A stretch of DNA of 64,000 bases, from assembly GCA_001771135.1 (NCBI GenBank), contig MESW01000008.1, positions 87,630-151,629 of the forward strand, in the 5' to 3' direction. Each line of letters begins with the position of its first letter. Positions within the stretch are counted from its first letter, which is position 1. This DNA is from a candidate division CPR3 bacterium GWF2_35_18 (GTDB lineage Bacteria > Patescibacteriota > CPR3 > GWF2-35-18). Below the pieces are notes generated by a model, which saw nothing but the letters and a program-made list of their open reading frames with translations, had not been told where the DNA came from and did no database searches. Shown in pieces: positions 1 through 64,000 of the stretch. The position numbers were made by a program, and so were the translations under genes.

Positions 1-282
1 TTGAATATAAAAGTATTTGACAGATAGTAAATTTTATTGTTAGACTAATTAGTAATAATCTTAATGAGATGAAAATGATTTCACTGCCCAACAATTCTTC
101 TCAGAAACTCTTTAATCCTTTTGGGTTTACCCATTTTAATTCTAATATATTTCTAGATTTATTAAATAACGCTACATATAGACATTGTGATGATTTTACA
201 TCAGGCAAAAAAGAATGATGCTATAGACGATACTAATTTTAATTATTAGAATAATTACCTTGGAAGGAGGTGAAAAATAAAC

Positions 283-807
283 ATGAAGAAATTTTTAAAG
301 AGCCGTGAAGGTTTTACCTTAATCGAACTTTTAGTTGTCATTGCGATTATTGGTATCTTAGCCGCTGTAGTTGTGCTCGCGATCAACCCAGTAGCTATGA
401 TGCAAAAAGGTCGTGATTCCAATCGTAAATCAGACTTGGCTACTCTCTCAAAAGCAATTGATATTTATATGACTCAAGGGGCGACAGCTGTTCCTGGTGG
501 TGCTAATGTAAATCAAACTTCTCAGGGTATGACTAATTGTTGTAGTGGAACAGTGTCTACATGTACTGGTCCTACAACCTCTACAACCGGAGGATGGATA
601 ATTCCATTCGCTGTTTCTTGTGGAGTTGACCTTTCACCATATATCGCCAAAATTCCTATAGATCCAAATAATACTGCGACCTTAAGATATCATTATGATA
701 CTAATGCAACAGGAGATCGTTATTGTCTTGAGGCTGATATGGAACATGCTGATAGCGGACCGAGTTACAAAGTAGGAAGTGATTTAACGGGATGTGCTAC
801 ATACTAA
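283..807 (+). CDS. Type IV pilin / pseudopilin (prepilin-type N-terminal cleavage/methylation domain)
   Basis: N-terminus MKKFLKSREG|FTLIELLVVIAIIGILAAVV is a class III signal peptide with Glu at +5. GGAGG RBS at 266-270. Confidence 0.8.
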   Translation: MKKFLKSREGFTLIELLVVIAIIGILAAVVVLAINPVAMMQKGRDSNRKSDLATLSKAIDIYMTQGATAVPGGANVNQTSQGMTNCCSGTVSTCTGPTTSTTGGWIIPFAVSCGVDLSPYIAKIPIDPNNTATLRYHYDTNATGDRYCLEADMEHADSGPSYKVGSDLTGCATY

Positions 808-8239: not shown

Positions 8240-9511
8240 ATGAAAAAGTATCTGCTTTTTTTATCTCTAATTATTATCGGAGTTCTTTCAATCGTATTTT
8301 TTAAATATTATTCCGATGAGATTAATGAAAAAAATAAAACATTAACGACAAGAAATAGCCTTATTTCCCAAAAAAAGGAAAGTTTAAAAACTGAGGATTT
8401 AGATATTTTACTAGACGGTAGCATACATAGCTCTGGTGAATGGTTACTTCGTAATCAGAAGGCAGATGGTTCTTTCAACTATGAACGTGATGTGACTACG
8501 GGTGAAATTACAGATAGCGAGAATAATATAGTGCGTCAATCAGGAACTTTATACGGAGTGGCAAAACTTTATAACTATACTAAAGACACTAGATACAAAG
8601 AAACACTTTTAAAAGGTTTTAATTATTTTGATACACTAGCCGAAACTAAAGATCTAGAGGGAACGACAGTTAGATACTTTAAAGAAGGCGGTAGTGTTCA
8701 AGCAAATACCGTAGCTCTACAGATTTTGGCGTATTTGGAACTTGCGAAAGCTGATCGCGATTTACCCTCTGACTTAAGTACAAAATTAGAAGAAATGGTT
8801 AATTTCATTAAATTATCTCAGCAAAGTAATGGTGCTTTTCAGAACTATTTTTTAAATAAGATCAAGATTGAGTGTTGGGAATCAGATTATAACAATGGAG
8901 AATCCTTTTTTGCTTTAACTAGTTACTATAAATATTCATCCGATGAAACTTTAAGACCTCTTTTAGAAATATCCGCAAATTACTTTTTAGAAAAGTACAA
9001 AGACTTTAATATTGAATTTTACTCTTGGGGGATGATGGGTTTTTCGCAGCTTTATGAAATTACTGGAAATACTAACTACCGAGATTATATTTATCAAAAT
9101 ACTGATAATATGATAAATGTAGCTGGGACGAACTTTCTCGGGATTGGGGCGTATTTAAAATCGACAAATGAAGCAAATCCATTACCAGATTATAGTCAAA
9201 TAGTTCAGACAGAGGGACTGCTATATGTTTATAAAATAGCGGTAATGGATAATCCAGAAAAAGCTTCGACTTATAAGAATGCGATTATAAATAGTCTAGC
9301 GTTTCATGCAGTCTTTCAGTCCCCTTGGGAAGAAACTCTTCCAAACAGAATATATGATGTTGTCAAAGGTGGTTTTTGTAACCGTTCGGACTGTTCTATC
9401 CAAAGGATTGATATGGTTCATCATGCTTTAAGTGCATTTATAGATGCTCTTAATTTTATCGATAATAGTAACCTGCAACTTTCTGTTGCAAATAGTATAA
9501 ATACAAAATAA
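8240..9511 (+). CDS. Membrane-anchored protein with alpha/alpha-toroid (prenyltransferase/squalene-oxidase-like) repeats
   Basis: N-terminal TM helix. Repeated Q..(D/N)G(S/A)F motifs (QKADGSFNYE, QQSNGAFQNYF) typical of alpha-toroid repeat proteins. No LanC-type Cys/His motifs. Confidence 0.45.
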   Translation: MKKYLLFLSLIIIGVLSIVFFKYYSDEINEKNKTLTTRNSLISQKKESLKTEDLDILLDGSIHSSGEWLLRNQKADGSFNYERDVTTGEITDSENNIVRQSGTLYGVAKLYNYTKDTRYKETLLKGFNYFDTLAETKDLEGTTVRYFKEGGSVQANTVALQILAYLELAKADRDLPSDLSTKLEEMVNFIKLSQQSNGAFQNYFLNKIKIECWESDYNNGESFFALTSYYKYSSDETLRPLLEISANYFLEKYKDFNIEFYSWGMMGFSQLYEITGNTNYRDYIYQNTDNMINVAGTNFLGIGAYLKSTNEANPLPDYSQIVQTEGLLYVYKIAVMDNPEKASTYKNAIINSLAFHAVFQSPWEETLPNRIYDVVKGGFCNRSDCSIQRIDMVHHALSAFIDALNFIDNSNLQLSVANSINTK

Positions 9512-9513
9512 AG

Positions 9514-11487
9514 ATGTTCAGGCGACTTAAAGAATCAAAATGGAATAGATTTATAATCTTATACCTGTTTGCAATTATTTGTTTGATATCCCCTACTCTT
9601 TCTTATGCAAAATTGACTGGGACTACCTATGAGATTGAGGACGAACTTTTTGATAATGGAGGCGGAATGTCAACTGGAACTGCCTATCAATTAGATAATT
9701 CTAGTATTAGCCAATGGGTTCAAGGGAAGTTTACTGGCGGAAGTTATGATGCTCTTGTAGGTCACTGTTACAAAGATGTTACTTTACCTGTTTGTTCTGG
9801 AATGAGTTTTTATTTACCTGATCCAAATAATATTTTGCTGGTGAGAGTGAATTGGGGGGCGACAGATCAAAATAACAACGAGTTTGATACTGGAGTGTAT
9901 GGATATGATGTTGATTATCGTATCGATGGTGGAGCGTGGACTAACCTTTATCCAACAGTTAATAATGCCTATGGCGCAAATACTTCTGCAGATCTGGTTA
10001 TTAACCCCACCAGTACTTATACTTTTAGAGTTTGGGCTTTAGATAATGTGGGAAACGTGAACGTTCTTTGTGGGATGGATAGTGTTCAATTTGGAGCTTT
10101 GTGGTTTCAGGGAGTTGATGGATATGTGCGTGCAGAAAATAATCTCGTCTGTGATATCTCTTCTTTTTCAACCGATGGATATGTTGACTTTGATAGTTCT
10201 GGAGCAGGAGGGTTAAAAGGTGGTATTCCTTCTGCCGGAGGGAATATTGACCAAGGTTATGGAGATTTTTCTTCGCGTGGTAATAACGAAGGATGGAATG
10301 TTTCTCCAAACTATCTAATAGCTGAAACTAATCATTACAACTATGCTTGGTTTTACAGTAATTTGAATGGACAAGAAGCAGCGTTAGTTCCAGATGGTGG
10401 AGATGGGACTGTTAACGCCACTGAGCTAATTAATGCGATAAACAGTACCGTAACTACCAGAATTTTTGCCAGCGATACAGATGCTTTTATCTGGGGTCGT
10501 AGAGGAAGTAGTTATAATAGTTGTCGAAATACGAGTGGCGGTTACAACTCAAGCTCAACAACAAGCAGACTTGGTCAGTACGATGAAACATCGGGGCCAA
10601 TTGCTACTTATAATTGTTATAGATCCTATTTTGAGTTTGATACAGGTAATATTCCTGATGATGCCAGTGTTCTTGACGTGAAATTGGGACTAAAAGTAGC
10701 TACGGATCTTTCGACAGTAGACTTCGATGTACGTATTAATAAATTTGATTGGAATTCTCCTATGTCTGCAGCAAATAGAGAAGCAAATTATGATGCAGCA
10801 GGTACTGTTTTTGATCAAGTTTGGCGTAATACTTCTGGGATAAGCACGGGAGTTTATTATAGTAATACGACATCTCTAGATACAAATTGGATTAATAAAA
10901 CGGGAATAACTTCCTATCAGTTGCGTTCTTCAAGAGATGTTTCAGCGATCATTCCTACTACTGCAGAATTTATTGACCTGATGACGGCAGAAAGTACAGG
11001 GACTACGAACGACCCTTATCTAGATGTTACCTATACAAATACTGGAATTTATTATGTCGATGGAGATTTAAATATTAATGGAAGTATCAATGCCCTTCAA
11101 AATAAAAATGTAATTATTTTTGTAAATGGAGATATTACGTTTAGTTCAAACCCAGTTGTGCACAGTTCCAGTAATTTATCTTTTATTTCAAACGGAGATG
11201 TGACTATTAATAACGCTGTAACGCAGATTGATAATTCTTTGATTTTTACAGATGGAAATTTGGTAACCGCTTCTGCCTCTACAAACGCAAATCAACTTCT
11301 TGTTGATGGAAGTTTAATCAGCAAAGGAATATTAAATTTAAGCCGGAAACGAGATATTTCTATTCAGGAAAACTTAAGTTCTCCTACAGAAAAAGTGACC
11401 TTAAATCCGGATGCATATTTTACATTAGGTCTTAATGAAAATCTGTTGGGAATACCTAGAGTTATATGGGAAGAAGTGACTGAATAA
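9514..11487 (+). CDS. Large secreted protein; C-terminal region with beta-helix-like repeats
   Basis: Signal peptide ...ICLISPTLSYA. Repetitive NGD(I/V)T..N motifs near the C-terminus. Translationally coupled to the preceding gene. Confidence 0.5.
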   Translation: MFRRLKESKWNRFIILYLFAIICLISPTLSYAKLTGTTYEIEDELFDNGGGMSTGTAYQLDNSSISQWVQGKFTGGSYDALVGHCYKDVTLPVCSGMSFYLPDPNNILLVRVNWGATDQNNNEFDTGVYGYDVDYRIDGGAWTNLYPTVNNAYGANTSADLVINPTSTYTFRVWALDNVGNVNVLCGMDSVQFGALWFQGVDGYVRAENNLVCDISSFSTDGYVDFDSSGAGGLKGGIPSAGGNIDQGYGDFSSRGNNEGWNVSPNYLIAETNHYNYAWFYSNLNGQEAALVPDGGDGTVNATELINAINSTVTTRIFASDTDAFIWGRRGSSYNSCRNTSGGYNSSSTTSRLGQYDETSGPIATYNCYRSYFEFDTGNIPDDASVLDVKLGLKVATDLSTVDFDVRINKFDWNSPMSAANREANYDAAGTVFDQVWRNTSGISTGVYYSNTTSLDTNWINKTGITSYQLRSSRDVSAIIPTTAEFIDLMTAESTGTTNDPYLDVTYTNTGIYYVDGDLNINGSINALQNKNVIIFVNGDITFSSNPVVHSSSNLSFISNGDVTINNAVTQIDNSLIFTDGNLVTASASTNANQLLVDGSLISKGILNLSRKRDISIQENLSSPTEKVTLNPDAYFTLGLNENLLGIPRVIWEEVTE

Positions 11488-22454: not shown

Positions 22455-22870
22455 AAAAAGCTCGTCCTTAAATAGAAAATTTTCTATTTAAGGACGAGCT
22501 TTTAATGAACTCGTGGTACCACCTTTAATTTCAGGTACAAAAAACACTCCAATTATGGAGTGTCCTGCATTTAATCATTTTATACCTGCTTGTTGATTCA
22601 AGTGCTTGACTTTGCAGTGACACTTTAGCCTTTGATAACGGAGGCATTCCGTCCCGCATTTAGTGCGAGAAGCTCCAGAGGGTATTTCGATTTTTTTACG
22701 TTCTGCAGGTTTTCAGGATTCCCTTGCTTTCTAAAAGTTACCGTAAAATTCTACTATTTCTCTTTCATCGCTTTTATACCGAATTGACTTAAATTGAACA
22801 TCAAAATAACGTTAATTCGGAGATATCCAACTACAATCTTATTATTTAATGAAGTTGAATATATAAAATT
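22455..22870 (-). promoter_or_regulatory. T-box riboswitch leader (tRNA-sensing antiterminator) upstream of the 396-aa unknown protein and tyrS
   Basis: Minus strand AAAUUAAAGGUGGUACCACGAG (complement of 22510-22531) against T-box consensus AAUUAGGGUGGNACCGCG. The antiterminator is AAGG[UGGUACC]ACGAG paired with CUCGU-CCUU, a 7-nt bulge. The terminator GCUCGUCCUUAAAUAG/CUAUUUAAGGACGAGC (22460-22499) is followed by U6. The Stem I start GCGAUGAAAGAGAAAUAGUAG carries a K-turn-like GA motif and an AGUA S-turn. Confidence 0.8.
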
Positions 22871-34719: not shown

Positions 34720-34796
34720 TGGTGGACCCAAGTGGACTCGAACCACTGACCTTTACAATGTCAATGTAACGCTCTAACCAACTGAGCTATGGGTCC
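34720..34796 (-). tRNA. tRNA-Val (anticodon GAC), CCA encoded
   Basis: Minus-strand sequence GGACCCATAGCTCAGTTGGTTAGAGCGTTACATTGACATTGTAAAGGTCAGTGGTTCGAGTCCACTTGGGTCCACCA folds as a cloverleaf. Anticodon loop TTGACAT. Confidence 0.85.
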
Positions 34797-54245: not shown

Positions 54246-55199
54246 TTACTTCGTAAGAGTCCAGAGATCTGTGAGTAATAATTTTTGAAAATCTCTAACT
54301 TGCTCTGCAAGTTTAAGATTATTTGTCATCTCAGGACGAGGGTCGATATAATAAACACCATCAAGTTTATTTAAAGCAACCGTATATCCAAGGAAATGGT
54401 TGGTCTTGAAAGTCGAATTGATTCCAAAAATACTTTTTCCTTTTACGGCTCTCTGAACATCATGCAAAAAAATAGCAATAACTTTTATGTCTCTTCCTAG
54501 TAACTTTGATAATAGAAATTTATCTAAAAAAATCTTGTCTATCCTATCTTTACTTGTAGTTTTTACAGAACCAACTATTTCTGATGGGTGTATGAATTTT
54601 GTTTCAGATGTCAAAATTGCTTTATTTTTTGAAAAGACAAGATCCAACTCATAAGACATAGTGTAACCTGATTGATTAGGTATAGGGAGATTAACTGTGC
54701 GTGGTTCACATTCCATTCCCAATTCTTTGATTATCAACTTAATTAAAACTTCAAATAACATTCCAATTCTCTTTCTTGACTGATTAGAATTATCAAAAGA
54801 ATCTCCAATGCATCCAATAGTTTGTTGAATCGTATAAATTACACTATCTATTTCTCTAGACTTAATGTAATCATCGTATTTTTCATTACTTGTTATTTTT
54901 TCTCGTTGTTTCTGCAAATCAGACAGAAATGAAATAAATCTTTCGAATTTACTTTTCATCTCCTCCGGAAATTCAATAAAAAGATTGCTATTTAATGGAC
55001 GAGTTATCTTATATCCATCGCTCTTACTATATTGGTAAAAAATATAATTATTTTGAGAGGGAGATACTATTCTGGTTGGATTTGAATTTTGAAGATAACT
55101 TAAAAATGCCTTAGCCATTTTAAGATAGTCTCCGAGTTGAACAAAAGCGGATTTGTCTTGTACACTTGCTTGTAAATCGTGTAAATTTATTGTTTTCAT
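54246..55199 (-). CDS. Putative type II restriction endonuclease (PD-(D/E)xK-like)
   Basis: Start overlaps the methyltransferase stop (ATGA). Candidate catalytic YELDLVF...SETK. No other family signal. Confidence 0.5.
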   Translation of the reverse strand: MKTINLHDLQASVQDKSAFVQLGDYLKMAKAFLSYLQNSNPTRIVSPSQNNYIFYQYSKSDGYKITRPLNSNLFIEFPEEMKSKFERFISFLSDLQKQREKITSNEKYDDYIKSREIDSVIYTIQQTIGCIGDSFDNSNQSRKRIGMLFEVLIKLIIKELGMECEPRTVNLPIPNQSGYTMSYELDLVFSKNKAILTSETKFIHPSEIVGSVKTTSKDRIDKIFLDKFLLSKLLGRDIKVIAIFLHDVQRAVKGKSIFGINSTFKTNHFLGYTVALNKLDGVYYIDPRPEMTNNLKLAEQVRDFQKLLLTDLWTLTK

Positions 55200-56149
55200 C
55201 TTATTGATTTTCTACGATTAGTATTTTCATGATCAAATTTTACCCAACGATCAATAGACCACTCCTTTACCATTTCTACTCGATTTGCAGCCATTTTACA
55301 ATAGCTTCTTGAAAGATCGCATCCCTTCCATCTTCTCTTCAATTGCTCTGCTGTCGTAATTGTTGTCCCAGATCCCAAAAATGGGTCGAGAACCAAATCA
55401 CCTTCATGAGATGAGGCTAAAATGATCTTTCTTAATAACTCTTCTGGCTTTTGGGTTGGGTGAGATGTTCTTTCTTCAGCACCATTACTTATCGTTGGGA
55501 TTTCCAAAACATCACGTGGTTTTGCCCCTAAAGGATTTGGACTCCATAATTTCCCTCCGTTTTTCTCCTTTCCATATTGGCTCGTTACCGCCTGTGGATG
55601 AACGGGATATTTTAAAGTGTGATCACCATAAGGTATACGGACAAAGTCGACATTGAAAATAAAATCCTTACTCTTTCTCAAATGTAAGATGCTCTCATGT
55701 GATCTTCCCCAATCATTTCCTAAGTTGGCTTTATTCTTATAATGCCATATTATCCACCGACAACCTTTAAAAAACTTCATGGCAGGATGTTTTAAATCAG
55801 CTAAAATTTCGGAAAATCCACAAATGTAAAGAGATCCATTCTTCTTTAATATTCGAGACGATTCCTCAATCCACCTCAGAGACCATTCAATATACTTTTC
55901 TTGAGATTCAAAATTATCCCACTCTGCCTTCTTAATATTATAAGGGGGATCAGCGAATATAAGGTCAACTGACTCAGAATCTAGATCCTTAAGCCAGGTT
56001 TCTGATTTACCTAACCAGATTTCACCATGAGGATGTGTGTAGAATAAAATTGGTTTGCTTTGATTCGATAAATCATTATCAATTCTCTGGAATCTTCCTT
56101 TCCTTAATTCATCTCCGAACAAAGTTAGTGATTTTATATTTTTTTTCAT
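55196..56149 (-). CDS. DNA methyltransferase, beta-class (N6-adenine or N4-cytosine)
   Basis: Motif IV IFADPPYNI precedes motif I DLVLDPFLGSGTT, the beta-class order. Confidence 0.85.
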   Translation of the reverse strand: MKKNIKSLTLFGDELRKGRFQRIDNDLSNQSKPILFYTHPHGEIWLGKSETWLKDLDSESVDLIFADPPYNIKKAEWDNFESQEKYIEWSLRWIEESSRILKKNGSLYICGFSEILADLKHPAMKFFKGCRWIIWHYKNKANLGNDWGRSHESILHLRKSKDFIFNVDFVRIPYGDHTLKYPVHPQAVTSQYGKEKNGGKLWSPNPLGAKPRDVLEIPTISNGAEERTSHPTQKPEELLRKIILASSHEGDLVLDPFLGSGTTITTAEQLKRRWKGCDLSRSYCKMAANRVEMVKEWSIDRWVKFDHENTNRRKSIR

Positions 56150-56161
56150 ACTGTTATATTA

Positions 56162-59100
56162 TTACAAACCCCTTCTTTCTTCCTGAATCTTTTCATGTTC
56201 AATTTGTTTGTCAAGAGAATCTATCATTTCATCCAACCATCGCTTTACATTATCATTATCTTCATTTTTTTTAAAAGCTACTAACTGTTCCTTCTTTTGT
56301 TGATAGTGTAGGCTTGCAGGACCAGACCAGCCTTCGGTATAAAAGTTTGCACCCATTTCTTTCCGAACATCGTTCCTACCTCCATATCGTGCTAAAACCT
56401 CTCTTGCCCAACATATTTTTCCTTCCTCTCTGAAAAGGAGCTTCGGAACGAAATAGGCGACATACCAAGCTCTCTTTTTAACATTTGCATCTACCCACTT
56501 CCATACTTTTTTTGGTGGGAAAAACGTTAATGCACCTGACATTCCCGCTGGCGAATGTTCACTTCCTCTCAGCCATTCTTTTATATGAAATGCTCTTGAA
56601 TCAATTGGTGGACCAAGATATTTAGCAGCGATATCCCATACCTCCGAGGGGTGATTTCGTGCAATTCCATCGATTACCTCTTGAGTCTGCGAATGATATT
56701 CCCCTAAGATACTATCATCTTCGCCAAAATGTTCCAGCATTACTTCCGCTAAGGGCAAGCTCTTCTTTGGATAAAGCTCGATAAACTTATTTCCAATCTC
56801 TTTCCAGTGAAAGTCGTCCATTTGGTTTCGTCTACCTTCTGACGGTTTTTTAAACAATGAAGGATGTGTGAGAAGCTTTAAAGTTAGGGTATCTGGTAAT
56901 TTGTGCTGAGACTCTTTTCTTAGATAAAAGAACTGATATAAATCAAGAGCAATCGAAACAGCATAATCCTCTGGACATTCGAGCAAAAATTCTATCCACT
57001 TCTTAAATATGTCCTCAGACAGATCTCGAATAACACTTCCGAGACCAAATACACGAAAATGTCCAGGCGTGATTACTTTCTTTTTGGCTAATTCCAACAC
57101 TCTTAAAGCTGCCCTGTATGACATACCAGATCGCCAAGTAAGGTCGGATACCCAGCTAGCTAGTTTTTCGTCTTTTGTTAAATCGTCTAGCAACGACTCC
57201 CATTTCTCCTTATCTTTTTCAAACAATACTCGCAGATATCCACCGATAAAGTAATCGCTAGAGTTGGGCTGTCTACTTACCTTACGCTGTGCATCTAATA
57301 GCATTGGTAATAAGGAAAAATCTTTATCCAGTTGACCCAGTTCATTACCAAATCGATACCCGCTCTTTGCTTCATTTGTTACTAACCAACTAAGTTCTGG
57401 TTTAAGCAGCTTAGGATCATCGACTACCTGTTGTGCAAGTTTTTTTATTGGAATTTCTGCCTTATCTACCCTGTTCCCGTCTTCGTCGAAACTATCTTCC
57501 AGGAGATCCATTCCAACATATCTCCTCATGAGAGAACTAAAATCGCTACCTTCCAGATCATCTCTTAATTTCTCCCATTTTTGTTTCATCTCAGCTGGCA
57601 TATCTTTTCCGTCATAGTGGAGAATAGCAATCACTCTTTCTAGAATTTTTTCCTTGTTCCCATAAGGATTTTTTGATAATTCAGTGATGTTTGCAATTAT
57701 CATGTCTGTTAGCTTCGGAATCTTACCTAAACCTCTTGAGTTATCAAGAAGAACATCAATTGCCTGATCCTGCTCATCTTCTGGTAGGACTTCCAGTTTG
57801 CCATATAAAAGTTCCCAAACCTTCTGATAGGCATCCCACAATTCGTCATATGTTTTTGCTCTCCACAGTTGAGCTTCTCTTCGCACTCCCTGATACTCCG
57901 CACCTATCATACGGGTAAAATGTTGGGATTCTAGTGCCTTATCACACGCCCGAATAGCAAGTTTCCGTCCTTCTTTTGAATCAGAATTGAGTGCCTCCTG
58001 AAGGACAGGTAGCCTTTCTTCTGGTGGTGCTTCAGTTGATGAAAGACCTACAGAAAATAGGTCTGCGAAAGTTCCACTAGCGTTATTGGCATAAGTTTCG
58101 TTTTCAGCCTCACCAAGAGCAAGAAGCAATCTTGCAGCATCAGCAAATAACTCTCTCCATACAACTATCTTTTCTAAAGCCCAAACAACATTTCTACGAG
58201 CTTCCCTAAACTCTAACAGTTCTTTTTTTCCCCACTTACCAATTGTTTCTTGTAAAGTTGCCAATGCCGACTCAGGATCAGCTTCGGTCAATTTTAAAAA
58301 AAAATCTCCGCCGAGCTTGGTTTTTATAAGTGTCCCATCAGAAAACAAACCATCTTTACCTAAAATTGCTTTAGCAAAATCTTTTCCTTTTTCTGAGGTT
58401 GCGATGTAAGGTAAATGGTCAAAAAATCTTTCGAGAAGATCAGCTCTAAATTCTTGTGGGATACTTTCAATAAATTCCTCGAACTTCTTCTTCGTAAAAC
58501 CGTGAGATTCCCACCATTCTTTAAGCAAGTATATTCTCAGCATGAAGGGGGTGACATAAATGTAATGCTGTCCCTGGATAATTCCTCTTTTTCTTTGTTC
58601 AGTCACTGCGTCTTGAAAGTCTGCAAATTCTACGCCCATCGTTTGTGCGACCCACTCGGATTCCTTTGATAATTTCCCCTCATAGCCAACTTTGCTGAAG
58701 AGGGATAGTCCCTGCAATACCTTCTTTGTTTTTCTAAAATGATCAGTTGTAAGATCTCGTCCACCAATCAAGCGGTTCATTAAAGCCTCATCGCTAACAT
58801 CCAAAAAATCTTTTTGGTCATCGGTTTTACTGGCTAAATAACTTTCAGCTAGTAAAACGCCTATTCGTGGATAGCCGTCTGCAAATTGACTTAGTCTATC
58901 AATAACATCATTTGGCAAGGCTGATGCTTCGGCTTTTAGGATTGTTTTAATGGAATCTTGACTTAATTTAGTTACTTTAAGTGATAAGGAAGGAGATGGG
59001 ATATTTCCTATCTCATAAGACAAAGTGATCAAAGCTAGTCGATTTCCTCTGGAAGAGAATGAGCGGACAAATTCGTCGTGCTGTTGTAAATCGCATTCGT

Positions 59101-59950
59101 CTATAACCACAATGGCAGACAGGTTTTGGTCATTTTGCAAAGTTGTGAACAAGGATGACAAACGGAAAGCGTCCGCCTTGACATAAATAACCCTTTGTTT
59201 TAGGTCGTCGGGAGCTAAAGCTTCATAAACAAACCTAGTTTTACCAATTCCTGAAAGCCCAGTAATTCTGAAAACAACACATTGCCCGTTACAATTTCTC
59301 AGTTTATCCGATATCTCTTCGGCTAATTTCTTTCTCTCGTCATCAAACACAAACGCCTTTGGCAACTGGATTTCTCTGTTTTCTTCCCATGAGGAATACG
59401 GCAAACATTGGCTAAGATCGTTTTTGAACCAAGCAACTAAAGAAGGAAAGCGTTCAATAAAACCAATCAACTGAGTCGCCGTGTAAAGGCGGACTTTAGG
59501 ATTGGGGTAACCCAATCGAACAAGTTCGTCTTTAATGGCTTGCTCTCTTGGGGCAGTAGCTCTTGGACTTGTTATGTCGGCAAATAGAACGAGCGTATAA
59601 GTTCCGTCAGCATCAAGAATTTTTTTTATTTCTGGCTTCAGCGGTTGATTTAAATCGTTTCCTATATGAAGTTCTTTTTTACAGGCAGCTGGAATAAGGT
59701 CGGAGGATTTTATTTGGTATCCACTTGTTCCATTGGGAATCACTTCATCCAAAGTCGGACCTGCATCATTTACATAAGCATCAACTCCACCATCTCCAAC
59801 ATTAATACACTGAGGAACATTGATGATATTTTGCCCAACTCCCACTCTTCCAGCCTCTGCCCACAAGAGTCTTCTAAAGGAGTCAACGGCACGATCTTGA
59901 CCAAGATTGGTTAAATCACTTACCTGCAAGGTAAACGGTGTAGTTGTCAT
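56162..59950 (-). CDS. Large STAND-type NTPase with N-terminal nuclease-like domain and C-terminal helical repeats (Avs-like antiviral candidate)
   Basis: 1262 aa. N-terminal GDGGVDAYV...GYQIKSS is PD-(D/E)xK/Mrr-like. Walker A ITGLSGIGKTRFVY, Walker B AIVVIDECD. About 900-aa helical C-terminus. Confidence 0.65.
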   Translation of the reverse strand: MTTTPFTLQVSDLTNLGQDRAVDSFRRLLWAEAGRVGVGQNIINVPQCINVGDGGVDAYVNDAGPTLDEVIPNGTSGYQIKSSDLIPAACKKELHIGNDLNQPLKPEIKKILDADGTYTLVLFADITSPRATAPREQAIKDELVRLGYPNPKVRLYTATQLIGFIERFPSLVAWFKNDLSQCLPYSSWEENREIQLPKAFVFDDERKKLAEEISDKLRNCNGQCVVFRITGLSGIGKTRFVYEALAPDDLKQRVIYVKADAFRLSSLFTTLQNDQNLSAIVVIDECDLQQHDEFVRSFSSRGNRLALITLSYEIGNIPSPSLSLKVTKLSQDSIKTILKAEASALPNDVIDRLSQFADGYPRIGVLLAESYLASKTDDQKDFLDVSDEALMNRLIGGRDLTTDHFRKTKKVLQGLSLFSKVGYEGKLSKESEWVAQTMGVEFADFQDAVTEQRKRGIIQGQHYIYVTPFMLRIYLLKEWWESHGFTKKKFEEFIESIPQEFRADLLERFFDHLPYIATSEKGKDFAKAILGKDGLFSDGTLIKTKLGGDFFLKLTEADPESALATLQETIGKWGKKELLEFREARRNVVWALEKIVVWRELFADAARLLLALGEAENETYANNASGTFADLFSVGLSSTEAPPEERLPVLQEALNSDSKEGRKLAIRACDKALESQHFTRMIGAEYQGVRREAQLWRAKTYDELWDAYQKVWELLYGKLEVLPEDEQDQAIDVLLDNSRGLGKIPKLTDMIIANITELSKNPYGNKEKILERVIAILHYDGKDMPAEMKQKWEKLRDDLEGSDFSSLMRRYVGMDLLEDSFDEDGNRVDKAEIPIKKLAQQVVDDPKLLKPELSWLVTNEAKSGYRFGNELGQLDKDFSLLPMLLDAQRKVSRQPNSSDYFIGGYLRVLFEKDKEKWESLLDDLTKDEKLASWVSDLTWRSGMSYRAALRVLELAKKKVITPGHFRVFGLGSVIRDLSEDIFKKWIEFLLECPEDYAVSIALDLYQFFYLRKESQHKLPDTLTLKLLTHPSLFKKPSEGRRNQMDDFHWKEIGNKFIELYPKKSLPLAEVMLEHFGEDDSILGEYHSQTQEVIDGIARNHPSEVWDIAAKYLGPPIDSRAFHIKEWLRGSEHSPAGMSGALTFFPPKKVWKWVDANVKKRAWYVAYFVPKLLFREEGKICWAREVLARYGGRNDVRKEMGANFYTEGWSGPASLHYQQKKEQLVAFKKNEDNDNVKRWLDEMIDSLDKQIEHEKIQEERRGL

Positions 59951-60147
59951 TCTTCTTTTTCTTTGCTTTCTAATATTGTTTCAATATCTTTTGGATCGTA
60001 ACGTCTATCACCACGCTTGCTTACAATGATCGCTTTTAATCTGCCACTTTTATCCCATCGTCTTAGTGTTTCCACATGAACATTTAATATATCTGCTACT
60101 TGACGGATATTTAATAATTTTGGTAGGGACGTATTTTTCTTCTGCAT
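59947..60147 (-). CDS. Small HTH DNA-binding protein (excisionase/AlpA/MerR-like)
   Basis: LLNIRQVADILNVHVETLRRWDKSGRLKAI. 4-nt overlap with the STAND gene. Confidence 0.6.
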   Translation of the reverse strand: MQKKNTSLPKLLNIRQVADILNVHVETLRRWDKSGRLKAIIVSKRGDRRYDPKDIETILESKEKEE

Positions 60148-60392
60148 AACTCAACTTAATTATACATTATTTTTGTAAAAGATAAATTATTTTTATAGTA
60201 ACTTCGTTTGTGATTAAAAGCAGATTGTAATATAATCTATCTATAAAATTCAGCGGCGAAACAATGGTTTTTACAACCAGTCTCAAACCTAAAAGTGGGG
60301 CAATCCCATTGGGTTTGAGGCTTCGCCGCTGAAAAACACCAGGGGTTGTCCCGCTTTTCGTTTGGGCACCCCAACTAATAAATTAAAGGAGG

Positions 60393-60908
60393 TTGCTCAT
60401 GGAAGATAATCAAAATCAAAACACTCAGCCAATAATTGAAAAGAAATCGTTGATAAATAAAAAGAACGTAACTTTCCTCCTTATAATTATTGGTATTATT
60501 AGTCTTGTAGGCTTGTCTAAGCTATTTTCAGCAGCAAGTAATACACTTGACGATGCTAACGTAAGGAGACAACAGGAAGAGATACAAAAAGAAGCAGAGA
60601 AAGATGAATTTAATAGAAAAAGAGACCTACTACGTGCAAACCTAAAAGAAGTACTCTTACAGCAGGATAGTATATTTACGCAATTTCAAATGGAAACTAT
60701 AAGTGATTATGTTTCCCTGGAGTTAACCGTTTCTGATAGTTGGTATTATACTGAGAAGTATTTACAAGATAGAATTTTAGATGATGCTTTCCAAACGTAT
60801 AATCTACTTGCAGTCAAACATGGACTTAGAACTGAAGGCGATCTTGCGTGGCCTATAAACATAGTGGACGAATACGGTGTTGAATTAGCAAAAAAGGGTC
60901 GGCTCTAA
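60393..60908 (+). CDS. Hypothetical membrane-anchored protein
   Basis: AAAGGAGG RBS. One TM helix. Coiled-coil segment. Confidence 0.45.
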   Translation: MLMEDNQNQNTQPIIEKKSLINKKNVTFLLIIIGIISLVGLSKLFSAASNTLDDANVRRQQEEIQKEAEKDEFNRKRDLLRANLKEVLLQQDSIFTQFQMETISDYVSLELTVSDSWYYTEKYLQDRILDDAFQTYNLLAVKHGLRTEGDLAWPINIVDEYGVELAKKGRL

Positions 60909-60956
60909 ATTATATGATATTTGAAATCTACTAAGGCTTAGTCTCTCTATCATTGG

Positions 60957-61463
60957 CTACTCATTTTGGGACAGTAATTCTATAGCTTTATCTAAACACT
61001 TAGCAATTTCATCTTTATGTGGTGATTGTCTGATTTCGTTTGCAACTTCAGCACTAGAGAGATAACCAACTTTCGGTAAGAATATACCTTCATTCAATAT
61101 GCTGGGGTAAAGCTCTTTCTCGGCTTTGAACAGGTTTACGAAGGCAAGAATTAAGCGATAATCGTCAATACCGTTAAAATCTGTTTCAGATAATTTCGAT
61201 AATAATTTGTCAGTAATGTTTTTTATTATTTTAGTCTGTCTATTCCTAACTTCATAAATTGATAAATCTTGACTATCCAACACACTACTTTCAATTTCTT
61301 TAAGCCTTTTTTTTCTTTCTTCGAACCACATTTCTTTAGAAGCCTTGTCCTTCACCGTTCCCAAAGGAATATCATATTTTTCTGATACCATGGAGACGGT
61401 TATTGTTTCCGAAGAAAAGTAATATTTTTTTAGCGTTAGCCAATCAATAGTTGTTTTTGCCAT
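60957..61463 (-). CDS. Hypothetical protein (phage-like region)
   Basis: Clean 168-aa ORF. Confidence 0.4.
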   Translation of the reverse strand: MAKTTIDWLTLKKYYFSSETITVSMVSEKYDIPLGTVKDKASKEMWFEERKKRLKEIESSVLDSQDLSIYEVRNRQTKIIKNITDKLLSKLSETDFNGIDDYRLILAFVNLFKAEKELYPSILNEGIFLPKVGYLSSAEVANEIRQSPHKDEIAKCLDKAIELLSQNE

Positions 61464-62402: not shown

Positions 62403-62558
62403 ATGAGTCGACAAAGTGACAACAAAAACACAAAACAGGTCCGAATTGATGCCGAACTGCATAAATTACTAAAGATTGAAGCAGCTGAGACTAGAAGCAC
62501 CATCAAAAGGCTAATAGAGTCTATTATTTTGGAATCGTATGACCCTACTACTAACAAA
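62403..62558 (+). CDS. Ribbon-helix-helix (CopG/Arc-like) DNA-binding protein, 51 aa (not in ORF track)
   Basis: KQVRIDAELHKLLKIEAAETRSTIKRLIESII is a beta-strand-helix-helix pattern. Its stop overlaps the next ATG (TAATG). Confidence 0.45.
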
Positions 62559-62758
62559 TGGAAAAAATAATGGGATTATCAAAACAAGCTGTAAGTGACT
62601 TTAAAAGTGCTTACTTTAAAAGGTACGGAAAAGTTATATCGGATACAGAAGCTCAGGAAAAAGGTCTGGAATTACTAACTTTTTTCAAAATTATTTACAA
62701 GCCAATCCGAACTAGTTCGAATAACGATTGGAAACAAATTGGAGGTAAAAATGAATAA
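62558..62758 (+). CDS. Hypothetical small protein
   Basis: 66-aa ORF coupled to its neighbours. Confidence 0.35.
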   Translation: MEKIMGLSKQAVSDFKSAYFKRYGKVISDTEAQEKGLELLTFFKIIYKPIRTSSNNDWKQIGGKNE

Positions 62759-63014
62759 ATATGAAAAATTAGTCAAAAACTTTGTTCAAAAAGCTAATAG
62801 TGGGATAAGGGTAAGTGCAACTAAAGCCATAAGAATGTACTGTTTAGATTGCATGGGATACCAATATAAAGAGGTTGATAGATGTCCCAGTCAATTAAGA
62901 TGCCCATTATTCCACTTTAGAAAAGGTAAAAATACTACAGGGATATCTAATACTAAAAAGAAGGTATCGGAAATTAGTCTTCGAAATTTATCGGAAAGAA
63001 AATCCAAAGAATGA
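62739..63014 (+). CDS. Hypothetical small zinc-ribbon protein
   Basis: CLDC...CPSQLRCP. Confidence 0.35.
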   Translation: MEVKMNKYEKLVKNFVQKANSGIRVSATKAIRMYCLDCMGYQYKEVDRCPSQLRCPLFHFRKGKNTTGISNTKKKVSEISLRNLSERKSKE

Positions 63015-63195
63015 AACGTAGTGTCAGTTGGAAGCATTATAAAAGAACTCGGTAATAAAACTGTATATTATTGACTTAGAAAACCTACTGTGTGATGATT
63101 AAGTCGTGCTCAACTTAATGAATCGTTTTTTTAGATGGCCGTCTTGGACAACTTGAAGCGATTCATGTTGAGCACAACCAGGGCGGCCTTTTAAG

Positions 63196-64000
63196 TATGA
63201 ATGACCAAACAAATCTACAACAATTAAAGTTTTTCATGTACTGTCGTAAAAGCACGGATAGCGAAGACCGACAAGTTGCTTCTTTGCCTGCTCAGATAAA
63301 AGAGCTCACAGAAATCAAGGATCGTGAGAAGCTAAATATTGTTGATGTATATCAAGAATCTCATTCTGCCTTCCATCCAGGTAGACCAATGTTTAACGAA
63401 ATGCTTGAGAGGATTGAGAATGGTGAAGCTGATAGTGTTTTAGCATGGGCTACCAATCGCATTGCAAGAAACTCAAAAGATTCAGGGGAATTCATTTATT
63501 TAATAGACCAAAAAAAAATAAAGGTTGTCAAAACGAAGGATCGGACTTTCTACAATAATTCTGATGATAAATTCACACTTAATATCGATTTTACAGTAGC
63601 TAAAAAATCCTCAGACGACTTGAGTGCTGTAGTTCAAAGAGGAAATAGAGAAAAGTTTTTCGAAAGACGCGAATGGGGTGGAGTGGCCAAGATTGGATAT
63701 TTGAACTATACAGATCCGATATCAAAAAAGAAGAAGGTAATTTCTGACTCTAGTAGATTCCAGCTTATAAGAGATGCTTTACACCTCATGATTTACAAAG
63801 GTTATACCCCTATGGAGGCTTTGGATGTTCTGAATAATGAATGGCAGTTTACCACCAGAAAGACACTTAAACTCGGCGGTAAACCAATGAGCCGTACCAG
63901 TTGGTATGACATTATTAAAGACTCATTTTATTTTGGTTTAATGGAAAGAAAAGTTGATGGGAAAAAGGAAACTATTATGGGAATTCATGAACCAATGATA
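63196..64000 (+). CDS. Large serine recombinase (partial, continues past window end)
   Basis: N-terminal catalytic motif FMYCRKSTDSEDRQVASLPAQ (the YxRxST serine-recombinase nucleophile) followed by a recombinase-domain region. No stop codon before 64000. Confidence 0.8.

Follow-up and report, generated by a model that had tools for sequence, protein, structure and literature searches.

The G+C-rich intergenic structure at 60249-60372 of the window (the whole 64,000-nt stretch of DNA that was analysed) is, in the reading that we favour with slightly better than even confidence, a cis-acting bistable leader RNA that opens the rightward transcription unit of the core genes at its 5′ end. The stem-loops flagged by a first-pass annotation are members of a family of promoter-proximal leader RNAs from integrative elements of ultra-small (CPR) bacteria; these RNAs probably gate the genes of their own elements, including that of a serine recombinase. 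The structure, its position after a promoter, its compensatory conservation, and the complementarity between a loop sequence (the tip) and a downstream sequence (the tail) are shown by computation, as are all results given here. In a sister group of leaders, type 2, selection acts on both alternative folds, and the two folds are equally stable.

A structured element between a promoter and the first core gene

The first-pass annotation had described a 12-nt inverted repeat enclosing two hairpins, followed by a third stem-loop, and this description holds. The repeat is exact, TTCAGCGGCGAA (60249-60260) against TTCGCCGCTGAA (60322-60333), and is the sole such pair in the 64-kb window, where 0.16 would be expected by chance. 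RNAfold folds the plus strand of 60240-60395 as a three-way junction, with the two hairpins inside the outer stem and the third stem-loop after it. The predicted energy is −61.2 kcal/mol vs. −38.0 ± 3.9 for 200 dinucleotide shuffles, none of which folded as well (0/200; z = −6.0). The minus strand folds less stably (−56.5, z = −4.5), and several G·U pairs in the plus-strand helices become A·C mismatches there. The G+C content was also correctly reported as elevated, at 0.48 vs. 0.34 in the surrounding 2 kb. The features of the region are as follows; state A denotes the long hairpin and state B the pairing of tip and tail.

60208-60236, plus strand: sigma70-like promoter TTGTGA-17-TATAAT, predicted start ~60243-60245
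60249-60260, plus strand: 5′ strand of P1, the outer stem of the long hairpin (state A), from RNAfold and the inverted repeat
60265-60279, plus strand: P2, side hairpin UGGUU-UUUAC-AACCA, a variable and dispensable branch (RNAfold)
60280-60321, plus strand: P3, a 12-bp stem (60280-60291/60310-60321) with its apical region (RNAfold)
60291-60307, plus strand: tip AAAAGUGGGGCAAUCCC at the P3 apex, complementary to the tail
60322-60333, plus strand: 3′ strand of P1, from RNAfold and the inverted repeat
60342-60358, plus strand: tail GGGGUUGUCCCGCUUUU, pairing with the tip (state B) or with 60364-60372
60342-60372, plus strand: further hairpin GGGGU.GUCC...GGGCACCCC (RNAfold)
60364-60372, plus strand: 3′ strand of this GGGG...CCCC hairpin (GGGCACCCC), a possible anti-SD once the tip holds the tail
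60386-60401, plus strand: SD AAGGAGG (60386-60392) and start codon ATG (60399) of the rightward operon's first gene

Above its 12 bp, P3 continues through an AAA bulge into a 5-bp tip hairpin. Because the promoter ends at 60236, the structure begins about 5 nt into the predicted transcript, and it ends about 25 nt 5′ of the ATG at 60399. That codon, as called in all public copies, replaces the gene start at 60393 given earlier. The gene (60399-60908) encodes 169 aa with an N-terminal TM segment; the protein is an ORFan that matched only itself among 5.8 billion proteins, and it therefore offers no route to homologues. A separate, 19-nt imperfect inverted repeat (60374-60392/60476-60494, 79% complementary) sets the SD region of this gene against its own codons 26-32. 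The helix that tip and tail can form in the window (17 bp, loop of 34 nt) is followed by the U-run GCUUUUCGUUU, and a scan of 59800-61100 for intrinsic terminators called none.

The Rfam scan that had been suggested as a check returned, over the whole window, a T-box leader and a tRNA only. The T-box leader (22487-22777, minus strand; 100 bits vs. a gathering score of 93) is unrelated to the leaders at 60249 and 63106, and the tRNA is a tRNA-Val (34720-34796, minus strand). At 60249-60372 itself, neither ARAGORN nor Rfam gave a match, the latter even at E ≤ 10, and the best Rfam 15 score on 60100-60450 was 26 bits for sau-5949, whose threshold is 56. Searching phage and plasmid collections with 60230-60395 by blastn also gave no match.

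The host is an integrative element with defence cargo

The leader at 60249-60372 is carried by an integrative element of candidate division CPR3, inserted at tRNA-Ser, with a large serine recombinase (LSR) and leftward defence cargo. This locus recurs in over 20 public contigs from MAGs of candidate division CPR3. In all 10 public contigs that encode the neighbouring HTH protein, the element is 99.6-100% identical, so these copies provide no covariation. Their sole difference over 250 nt is a G-to-T change at 60313 in one contig (L003 9835; GCA_001771165), which turns the C60288-G60313 pair of P3 into a C·U mismatch. The main parts of the host element, and the members of one protein family found across related elements, are listed here.

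54246-60147, minus strand: defence cargo block comprising HTH protein, PD-Lambda-4_A homologue, type II methyltransferase, and restriction enzyme
62558-62758 (window), L036 5889-6071, L048 90-320, L059 3153-3335, L011 6053-6217: conserved 60-75-aa protein
L002 5149-5238, equivalent to window ~64910-64999: tRNA-Ser junction, overlapped by the LSR 3′ end

The left neighbour, on the minus strand, is a 66-aa HTH_17/mad1-like protein whose stop codon overlaps the start of a 1262-aa protein. The latter matches PD-Lambda-4_A end to end (E = 1.7e-52), and the type II methyltransferase and restriction enzyme follow it. The HTH protein (59947-60147) had been labelled Xis-like; given its overlap with the PD-Lambda-4-like gene start and its match to mad1, the protein is more likely a regulator of the PD-Lambda-4-like gene than an excisionase. 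At the same position, related elements carry a type I RM system, an MmeI-like enzyme, an SNase-domain gene, or a 1530-aa helicase with its own HTH_17 protein.

On the right, plus-strand side, the genes that had been called phage-like belong instead to the integrative element: a run of small genes ends in the LSR gene, which starts at 63197 and continues past the window end. In longer contigs, its 3′ end overlaps an opposite-strand tRNA-Ser(UGA). LSRs that target tRNA genes are unusual. Among ~30 other LSR loci, most overlap a tRNA gene on the opposite strand in the same way (Ser, Gln, Met, Tyr, Asn, Gly, or Trp), and the conserved LSR C-terminus ...DSNPR is seemingly encoded antisense to the tRNA T-arm (GGTTCGAATCC). 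A tRNA-Ser fragment that would mark the left end of the element was sought elsewhere in the window and was not found. With defence genes running leftward and core genes rightward, the structure at 60249-60372 sits at the divergent junction of cargo and core.

The conserved 60-75-aa protein (motif ...LF..IY.PI) marks this family of elements. It has no Pfam domain and forms 15 clusters among 5.8 billion proteins; in the window and in L059, it is adjoined by a small Cys-rich protein (window 62739-63014, a Zn-finger protein). Either of the two could be a candidate for a factor that reads the leader; further candidates in the window are an RHH protein (62403-62570) and the HTH protein at 59947-60147.

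Diverged homologues rebuild the stems

A profile search with the LSR provided 80 metagenomic loci, and the census of leaders covers loci fetched via the LSR and one small protein. From the window copy alone, a covariance model gave one significant match, at 766-915 of locus L036 (E = 7.7e-5), in which P1, P2, and P3 are all present, all with different sequence, and all changed compensatorily. Only two blocks were conserved in sequence: GGGGCAAC at the P3 apex, and GGUUGUCCC with a U-run after P1. A motif search with these two blocks found three more independent copies (L011, L048, and L059/L220), giving a type 1 set of five independent sequences with the window. The single-sequence model (R1) did not recover L011, L048, or L059 even with filters off. 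L011 was also one of two remote loci returned by an LSR query of genome contigs and was later found to carry the homologue. In viral contigs, the LSR profile found no relative and the strict DNA pattern no match; 120 matches to a loose pattern there lay in high-GC coding sequence without matching architecture, and we discarded them as chance.

All five copies lie after a −10 element on the LSR strand. In the homologues, this element, which reads TGTTATAAT in L036, TGTGTATAAT in L011, and TTGTTATAAT in L048, is 6-12 nt 5′ of P1. In the window, L036, and L220, the RNA heads the core operon opposite leftward cargo (PD-Lambda-4 and RM, type I RM, and an SNase-domain gene, respectively), and in L048 and L011 it is immediately 5′ of the LSR gene. 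All five elements share the conserved 60-75-aa protein, and some add a primase-helicase.

Conservation, whose absence would have counted against the first-pass description, is present in four independent, diverged homologues, with stems rebuilt by compensatory changes. P1 is 8-12 bp long in all five sequences and changes on both sides at 10 of 12 aligned pairs. For P1 and P3 together, 21 of 24 pairs change on both sides with no cell unpaired, a count which illustrates the pattern and is not a test of it, as the alignment was fitted by hand to the structure and then counted by script. The same alignment gives both-side changes at 7 of the 17 tip-tail pairs. P2 has an entirely different sequence in L036 and L220 and is absent from L011 and L048.

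Compensatory stems with G·U pairs indicate an RNA on the plus strand, and they bear on a reading in which the structure acts at the DNA level, as a site for attachment or packaging, as an origin or oriT, or as some other structure of single-stranded DNA. The nested inverted repeat, which lies between genes of a mobile element, invites this idea, and related elements encode primase-helicases. The structure, however, lies inside the element, with ~4.6 kb between it and the tRNA-Ser junction, and occurs once per element; no tRNA-Ser fragment was found elsewhere in the window. Pairing is kept where sequence is not, the G·U pairs work on the plus strand only, and in every case a promoter comes just before the structure and a start codon after it; the phage and plasmid collections likewise held no match. 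For attP, attL, or attR in particular, the crossover is the element boundary, and we rejected these candidates because the structure is internal and its stems vary in sequence while pairing is kept. The att or packaging site proposed in the first-pass annotation is therefore not supported, and the structure is not a terminal repeat, since contigs spanning window-equivalent 49947-70147 have one copy per locus. We regard any DNA-level role as very improbable.

Tip and tail can pair, to the exclusion of the long hairpin

In the window, 60291-60307 and 60342-60358 form 17 contiguous pairs. The corresponding helix is 16 bp in L048, 17 bp with one bulge in L011, 13 bp in L220, and 12 bp in L036. A tip-tail helix of at least 11 bp thus accompanies the long hairpin (24 bp in the window) in the four type 1 homologues, and also in 32 type 2 leaders. 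The tip core GGGGCA[AG]C is invariant in five homologues, and GGUUGUCCC followed by a U-run is invariant among the type 1 homologues. The flanks of tip and tail vary between elements with complementarity kept, and one G·U pair is invariant. The invariance of the core leaves room for a constraint other than pairing.

The tail begins 1-14 nt after the hairpin or P1, and from there it cannot reach the apex of a 24-29-bp hairpin; states A and B are therefore alternatives. In the five type 1 sequences, state A exceeds state B in stability by 4-20 kcal/mol, and in the window copy the values are −64.5 vs. −56.2, so that A is favoured by ~8 kcal/mol. Switching in cis would accordingly not be spontaneous in type 1.

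The tip-tail helix lies close to translation starts. It ends 1 nt 5′ of the AUG in L048, and the AUG directly follows it in L220; in L048, L220, L011, and the type 2 leaders, a start codon falls within ~15 nt of the tail and U-run. The window and L036 have the U-run as well, with the annotated ATG and its own SD 40-45 nt further downstream; this strong SD lies 30-40 nt past the tail. Short reading frames were noted in the same places. L011 has a 9-codon mini-ORF (9959-9988; AUG ACC UCA AGA AAA CCU AAC AAA ACC UAA) whose first codon lies 1 nt past the tip-tail helix and whose stop codon lies 2 nt 5′ of the SD-less AUG of the LSR, an arrangement which suggests that the two are translationally coupled. 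In the window and L036, putative short frames with a UUG start open 1-5 nt past the tail and run to just beyond the main ATG.

A sister leader precedes the recombinase gene

A generic scan for loops complementary to a downstream tail was too noisy under loose settings. Under strict settings, and with no sequence requirement, it revealed a recurrent element just 5′ of the LSR start in many loci, which we call type 2. The window has a copy of its own.

63071-63099, plus strand: type 2 promoter TTGACT-17-GATGAT (with TG)
63106-63196, plus strand: type 2 leader, immediately before the LSR start codon (63197); 85.9 bits with model R2
63106-63125/63159-63175, plus strand: stem S1
63137-63147, plus strand: type 2 tip GGCCGUCUUGG
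63178-63188, plus strand: type 2 tail CCAGGGCGGCC, followed by UUUUAAGU and then AUG

At least 37 copies were found in the 86 loci searched with the model, all but one of them immediately before the LSR gene and on its strand. The consensus over 32 leaders is nATAAT, exactly 6 nt, and then the first G of S1. In every type 2 sequence, S1 is 14-22 bp long and encloses the tip in its apical loop. The tail follows S1 by 1-2 nt, and after an AU-rich stretch the LSR AUG comes within 5-12 nt. Tips are CCUCC-like and tails SD-like (GGAGG, GAGGG, GGGGG), so that in sequence the two resemble an anti-SD/SD pair. The best Rfam score on 63040-63240 was 19.8 bits vs. a threshold of 70. One 12-kb contig (L063) has two type 2 leaders, at 226-352 (plus strand) and 8605-8731 (minus strand), with tails that differ at one position; it may hold two recombinase elements or an inverted duplication.

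Covariation was computed on a MAFFT alignment of 32 distinct type 2 sequences. S1a (8 pairs) is 98.4% paired, with both-side changes at 5 of 8 pairs, and S2, the tip-tail helix (18 pairs), is 94.2% paired, with both-side changes at 13 of 18. None of 500 shuffles reached the observed values for either, and slid controls were 31-53% paired. A third helix, S3, inside the S2 loop, is 92.9% paired with both-side changes at 5 of 6 pairs. The pair spectrum of column 119 (AU 15, GC 11, GU 5) is identical whether the partner is column 47 of S1a or column 101 of S3; a column with two covarying partners is the mark of a conserved structural switch. RNAalifold predicts S2 and S3 unaided. The energies of the two states are balanced, with dG(A) − dG(B) = 0.2 ± 4.1 kcal/mol, A being more stable in 17 leaders and B in 15; the window copy has −32.9 for state A and −32.8 kcal/mol for state B.

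These results weigh on the proposal that the hairpin is purely structural, a 5′ stabiliser or insulator without switching, in which tip-tail complementarity would be incidental or serve folding. The hairpin lies at, or a few nt from, the predicted start in all members, as known 5′ stabilisers do, and state A is thermodynamically dominant in type 1. The proposal leaves the conserved tip and tail and the compensatory changes in their flanks unexplained, along with the S2/S3 covariation and balanced energies of type 2, and we consider it quite improbable.

The many type 2 loci also inform the possibility of a small-molecule riboswitch, or of an RNA guide or cofactor for the recombinase like the IS110 bridge RNA. 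The location in the 5′ UTR of the recombinase gene or its operon, and the two conserved loop or tail sequences, are what such RNAs might have. Among the type 1 copies, however, junction sequences differ, there is no conserved junction or ligand pocket, and P2 is dispensable, being absent in 2 of 5; the proteins downstream of the leaders have no similarity to one another, and the conserved bases are those of tip and tail only, which pair with each other. As to a guide, tip and tail are complementary to each other and have no visible target. The tip GGCCGUCUUGG occurs beside tRNA-Ser, tRNA-Gln, and tRNA-Met, and tRNA-Gln is found with four tip classes; with tip class and adjacent tRNA gene uncorrelated over ~30 loci, a recombinase guide is unlikely. 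Both forms of this explanation have very little probability in our view. From the riboswitch-like leader that the first-pass annotation had considered, the leader part is kept (it follows a promoter, precedes SD and ATG, and has a conserved position), and the word riboswitch-like suits the alternative pairings alone.

The two types probably form one class

Model R2 scores window 63083-63213 at 85.9 bits and gives no significant match at 60249-60372. Its best score on a type 1 sequence is 13 bits (E = 5), in L048, which is in register from the −10 element to the AUG. Since the type 2 model does not match type 1, type 1 is a separate subfamily, tied to type 2 by architecture and context. Common to both are promoter spacing, CUCA(A/G) at the hairpin base, the tail start CCAGGG, the U-run, position, and the element family, and the two types substitute for each other 5′ of the LSR gene. 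In view of these shared features and mutual replacement, we treat type 1 as a divergent subfamily of one class. Homology of the two types is likely, though not proven, on the basis of shared architecture, context, and short shared strings.

A model of the leader as a two-state gate

In our model, the module would consist of the promoter and a leader with a long 5′-terminal hairpin (in the window, P1 and P3 with the optional P2) that presents the tip in its apical loop. In state A, the hairpin would leave the tail and start region free, and the operon would be expressed (ON); in the window, the tail would instead sit in the hairpin at 60342-60372. State B would bury the region up to the start codon under a G+C-rich helix of 12-17 bp that ends in the U-run, and the operon would be shut (OFF), presumably by occluding initiation, by terminating transcription, or by both. 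The balance could be set by an element-encoded protein at the semi-conserved hairpin base, by 5′ decay, or by co-transcriptional kinetics. In type 1, a cis switch would depend on a factor or on 5′ decay, unless the RNA acts in trans.

In the window, a tip that takes the tail may additionally free GGGCACCCC to pair with the SD. The computed effect is small, with the SD unpaired at a probability of 0.42 when the tail is free vs. 0.34 when it is blocked, and in L036 no effect was computed; this anti-SD relay is weakly supported.

Action in trans would lead to a different picture, in which the hairpin is released as an antisense immunity RNA in the manner of P1/P7 c4 and P4 CI, and its tip pairs with the tails of new transcripts, from the same or an incoming element, to shut the operon. 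As state A is far more stable than B in type 1, pairing within one molecule is disfavoured and loop-to-linear pairing between molecules is allowed. The order of promoter, structured RNA, and complementary site, all ahead of the first start codon, also agrees with it, as does the temperate type of the element, and a short RNA could end at the U-run after the tail or, in L036, at a small linker-tail hairpin with UUUUU. Against this stand the missing Rfam C4 match, the lack of evidence of processing, and a tip/tail core identical in five otherwise diverged elements, which is unexpected for a determinant of immunity specificity; the coupled covariation and isoenergetic folds of type 2 are typical of a cis switch. 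We judge a trans-acting RNA unlikely. The free-standing sRNA among the three earlier candidates is a minority rival; of the three, the leader of the downstream gene is the one that fits.

Taking the cis-acting leader further, we suggest tentatively, and as something rather doubtful, that tip-tail leaders are a new ligand-independent bistable RNA gate with its own near-consensus promoter, which times the LSR and operon and is widespread in defence-carrying CPR elements. Such a gate might work as a one-shot timer after cell entry, or as a switch whose reader is a protein of the element or the recombinase itself.

To our knowledge, almost nothing is known of how CPR/Patescibacteria regulate their genes or of the biology of their mobile elements, and these bacteria cannot be grown on their own. 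A leader with two equally stable folds, each backed by covariation, before a recombinase that moves defence islands would offer a concrete, easily mutated handle on the control of integration and excision genes. In a group for which few RNA families have been described, the leaders would be a new one, and they may be useful for tight control of serine integrases. For annotation, the family would explain a conserved G+C-rich intergenic block that is otherwise mistaken for an att site or a tRNA-like gene.

Comparison with known regulatory RNAs

We found no such motif in Rfam 15 or by full-text literature search, and several known systems share parts of the design. In P1/P7 c4 and P4 CI, a structured RNA is made just after a promoter of a temperate element, and its loops are complementary to a site before the first gene; this pairing blocks translation or causes termination. 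C4 antisense RNA undergoes RNase P-type processing to an RNA of roughly 70-80 nt. The leader resembles these RNAs (Rfam C4, RF01695) as a post-promoter RNA whose loop is complementary to a downstream site on the same transcript. Unlike C4, it has no RF01695 match at E ≤ 10, its long hairpin and tip-tail helix seem to be rival folds of a single molecule, and the type 2 energies are balanced.

The hok-family mRNAs of plasmid R1-type toxin systems use fbi and tac elements, coupled covariations, and mutually exclusive helices that decide whether the start region opens. The leader is likewise part of a mobile-element mRNA, with exclusive helices supported by covariation and one strand with two covarying partners. 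It differs from hok in that there is no toxin gene or antisense partner, the switch is at the 5′ end by its own promoter, and no 3′ processing is implied.

In IS10 and IS50, fold-back structures inhibit translation of the transposase, and in IS10 the inhibitory strand is present on read-through transcripts only. Here, too, the start region of a recombinase gene would be sequestered by an upstream leader segment. The leader, however, brings a near-consensus promoter of its own, and every transcript has both of the alternative strands.

The terminator/antiterminator attenuators read by a protein or a tRNA (RAT/LicT-BglG, T-box) likewise have a pair of alternative hairpins, of which the 3′ one is rich in G+C and runs into U residues. 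The 5′ hairpin of the leader has a semi-conserved base, G(U/A)GCUCA(G/A), which may be a protein site. In contrast to attenuators, the alternatives exclude each other mainly by topology, with a 3-nt overlap (S3/S1a), and not through a shared strand. A leader with alternative structures before a mobile-element gene is thus of a known kind, while the family described here seems new, as do its coupling to a promoter and its hosts.
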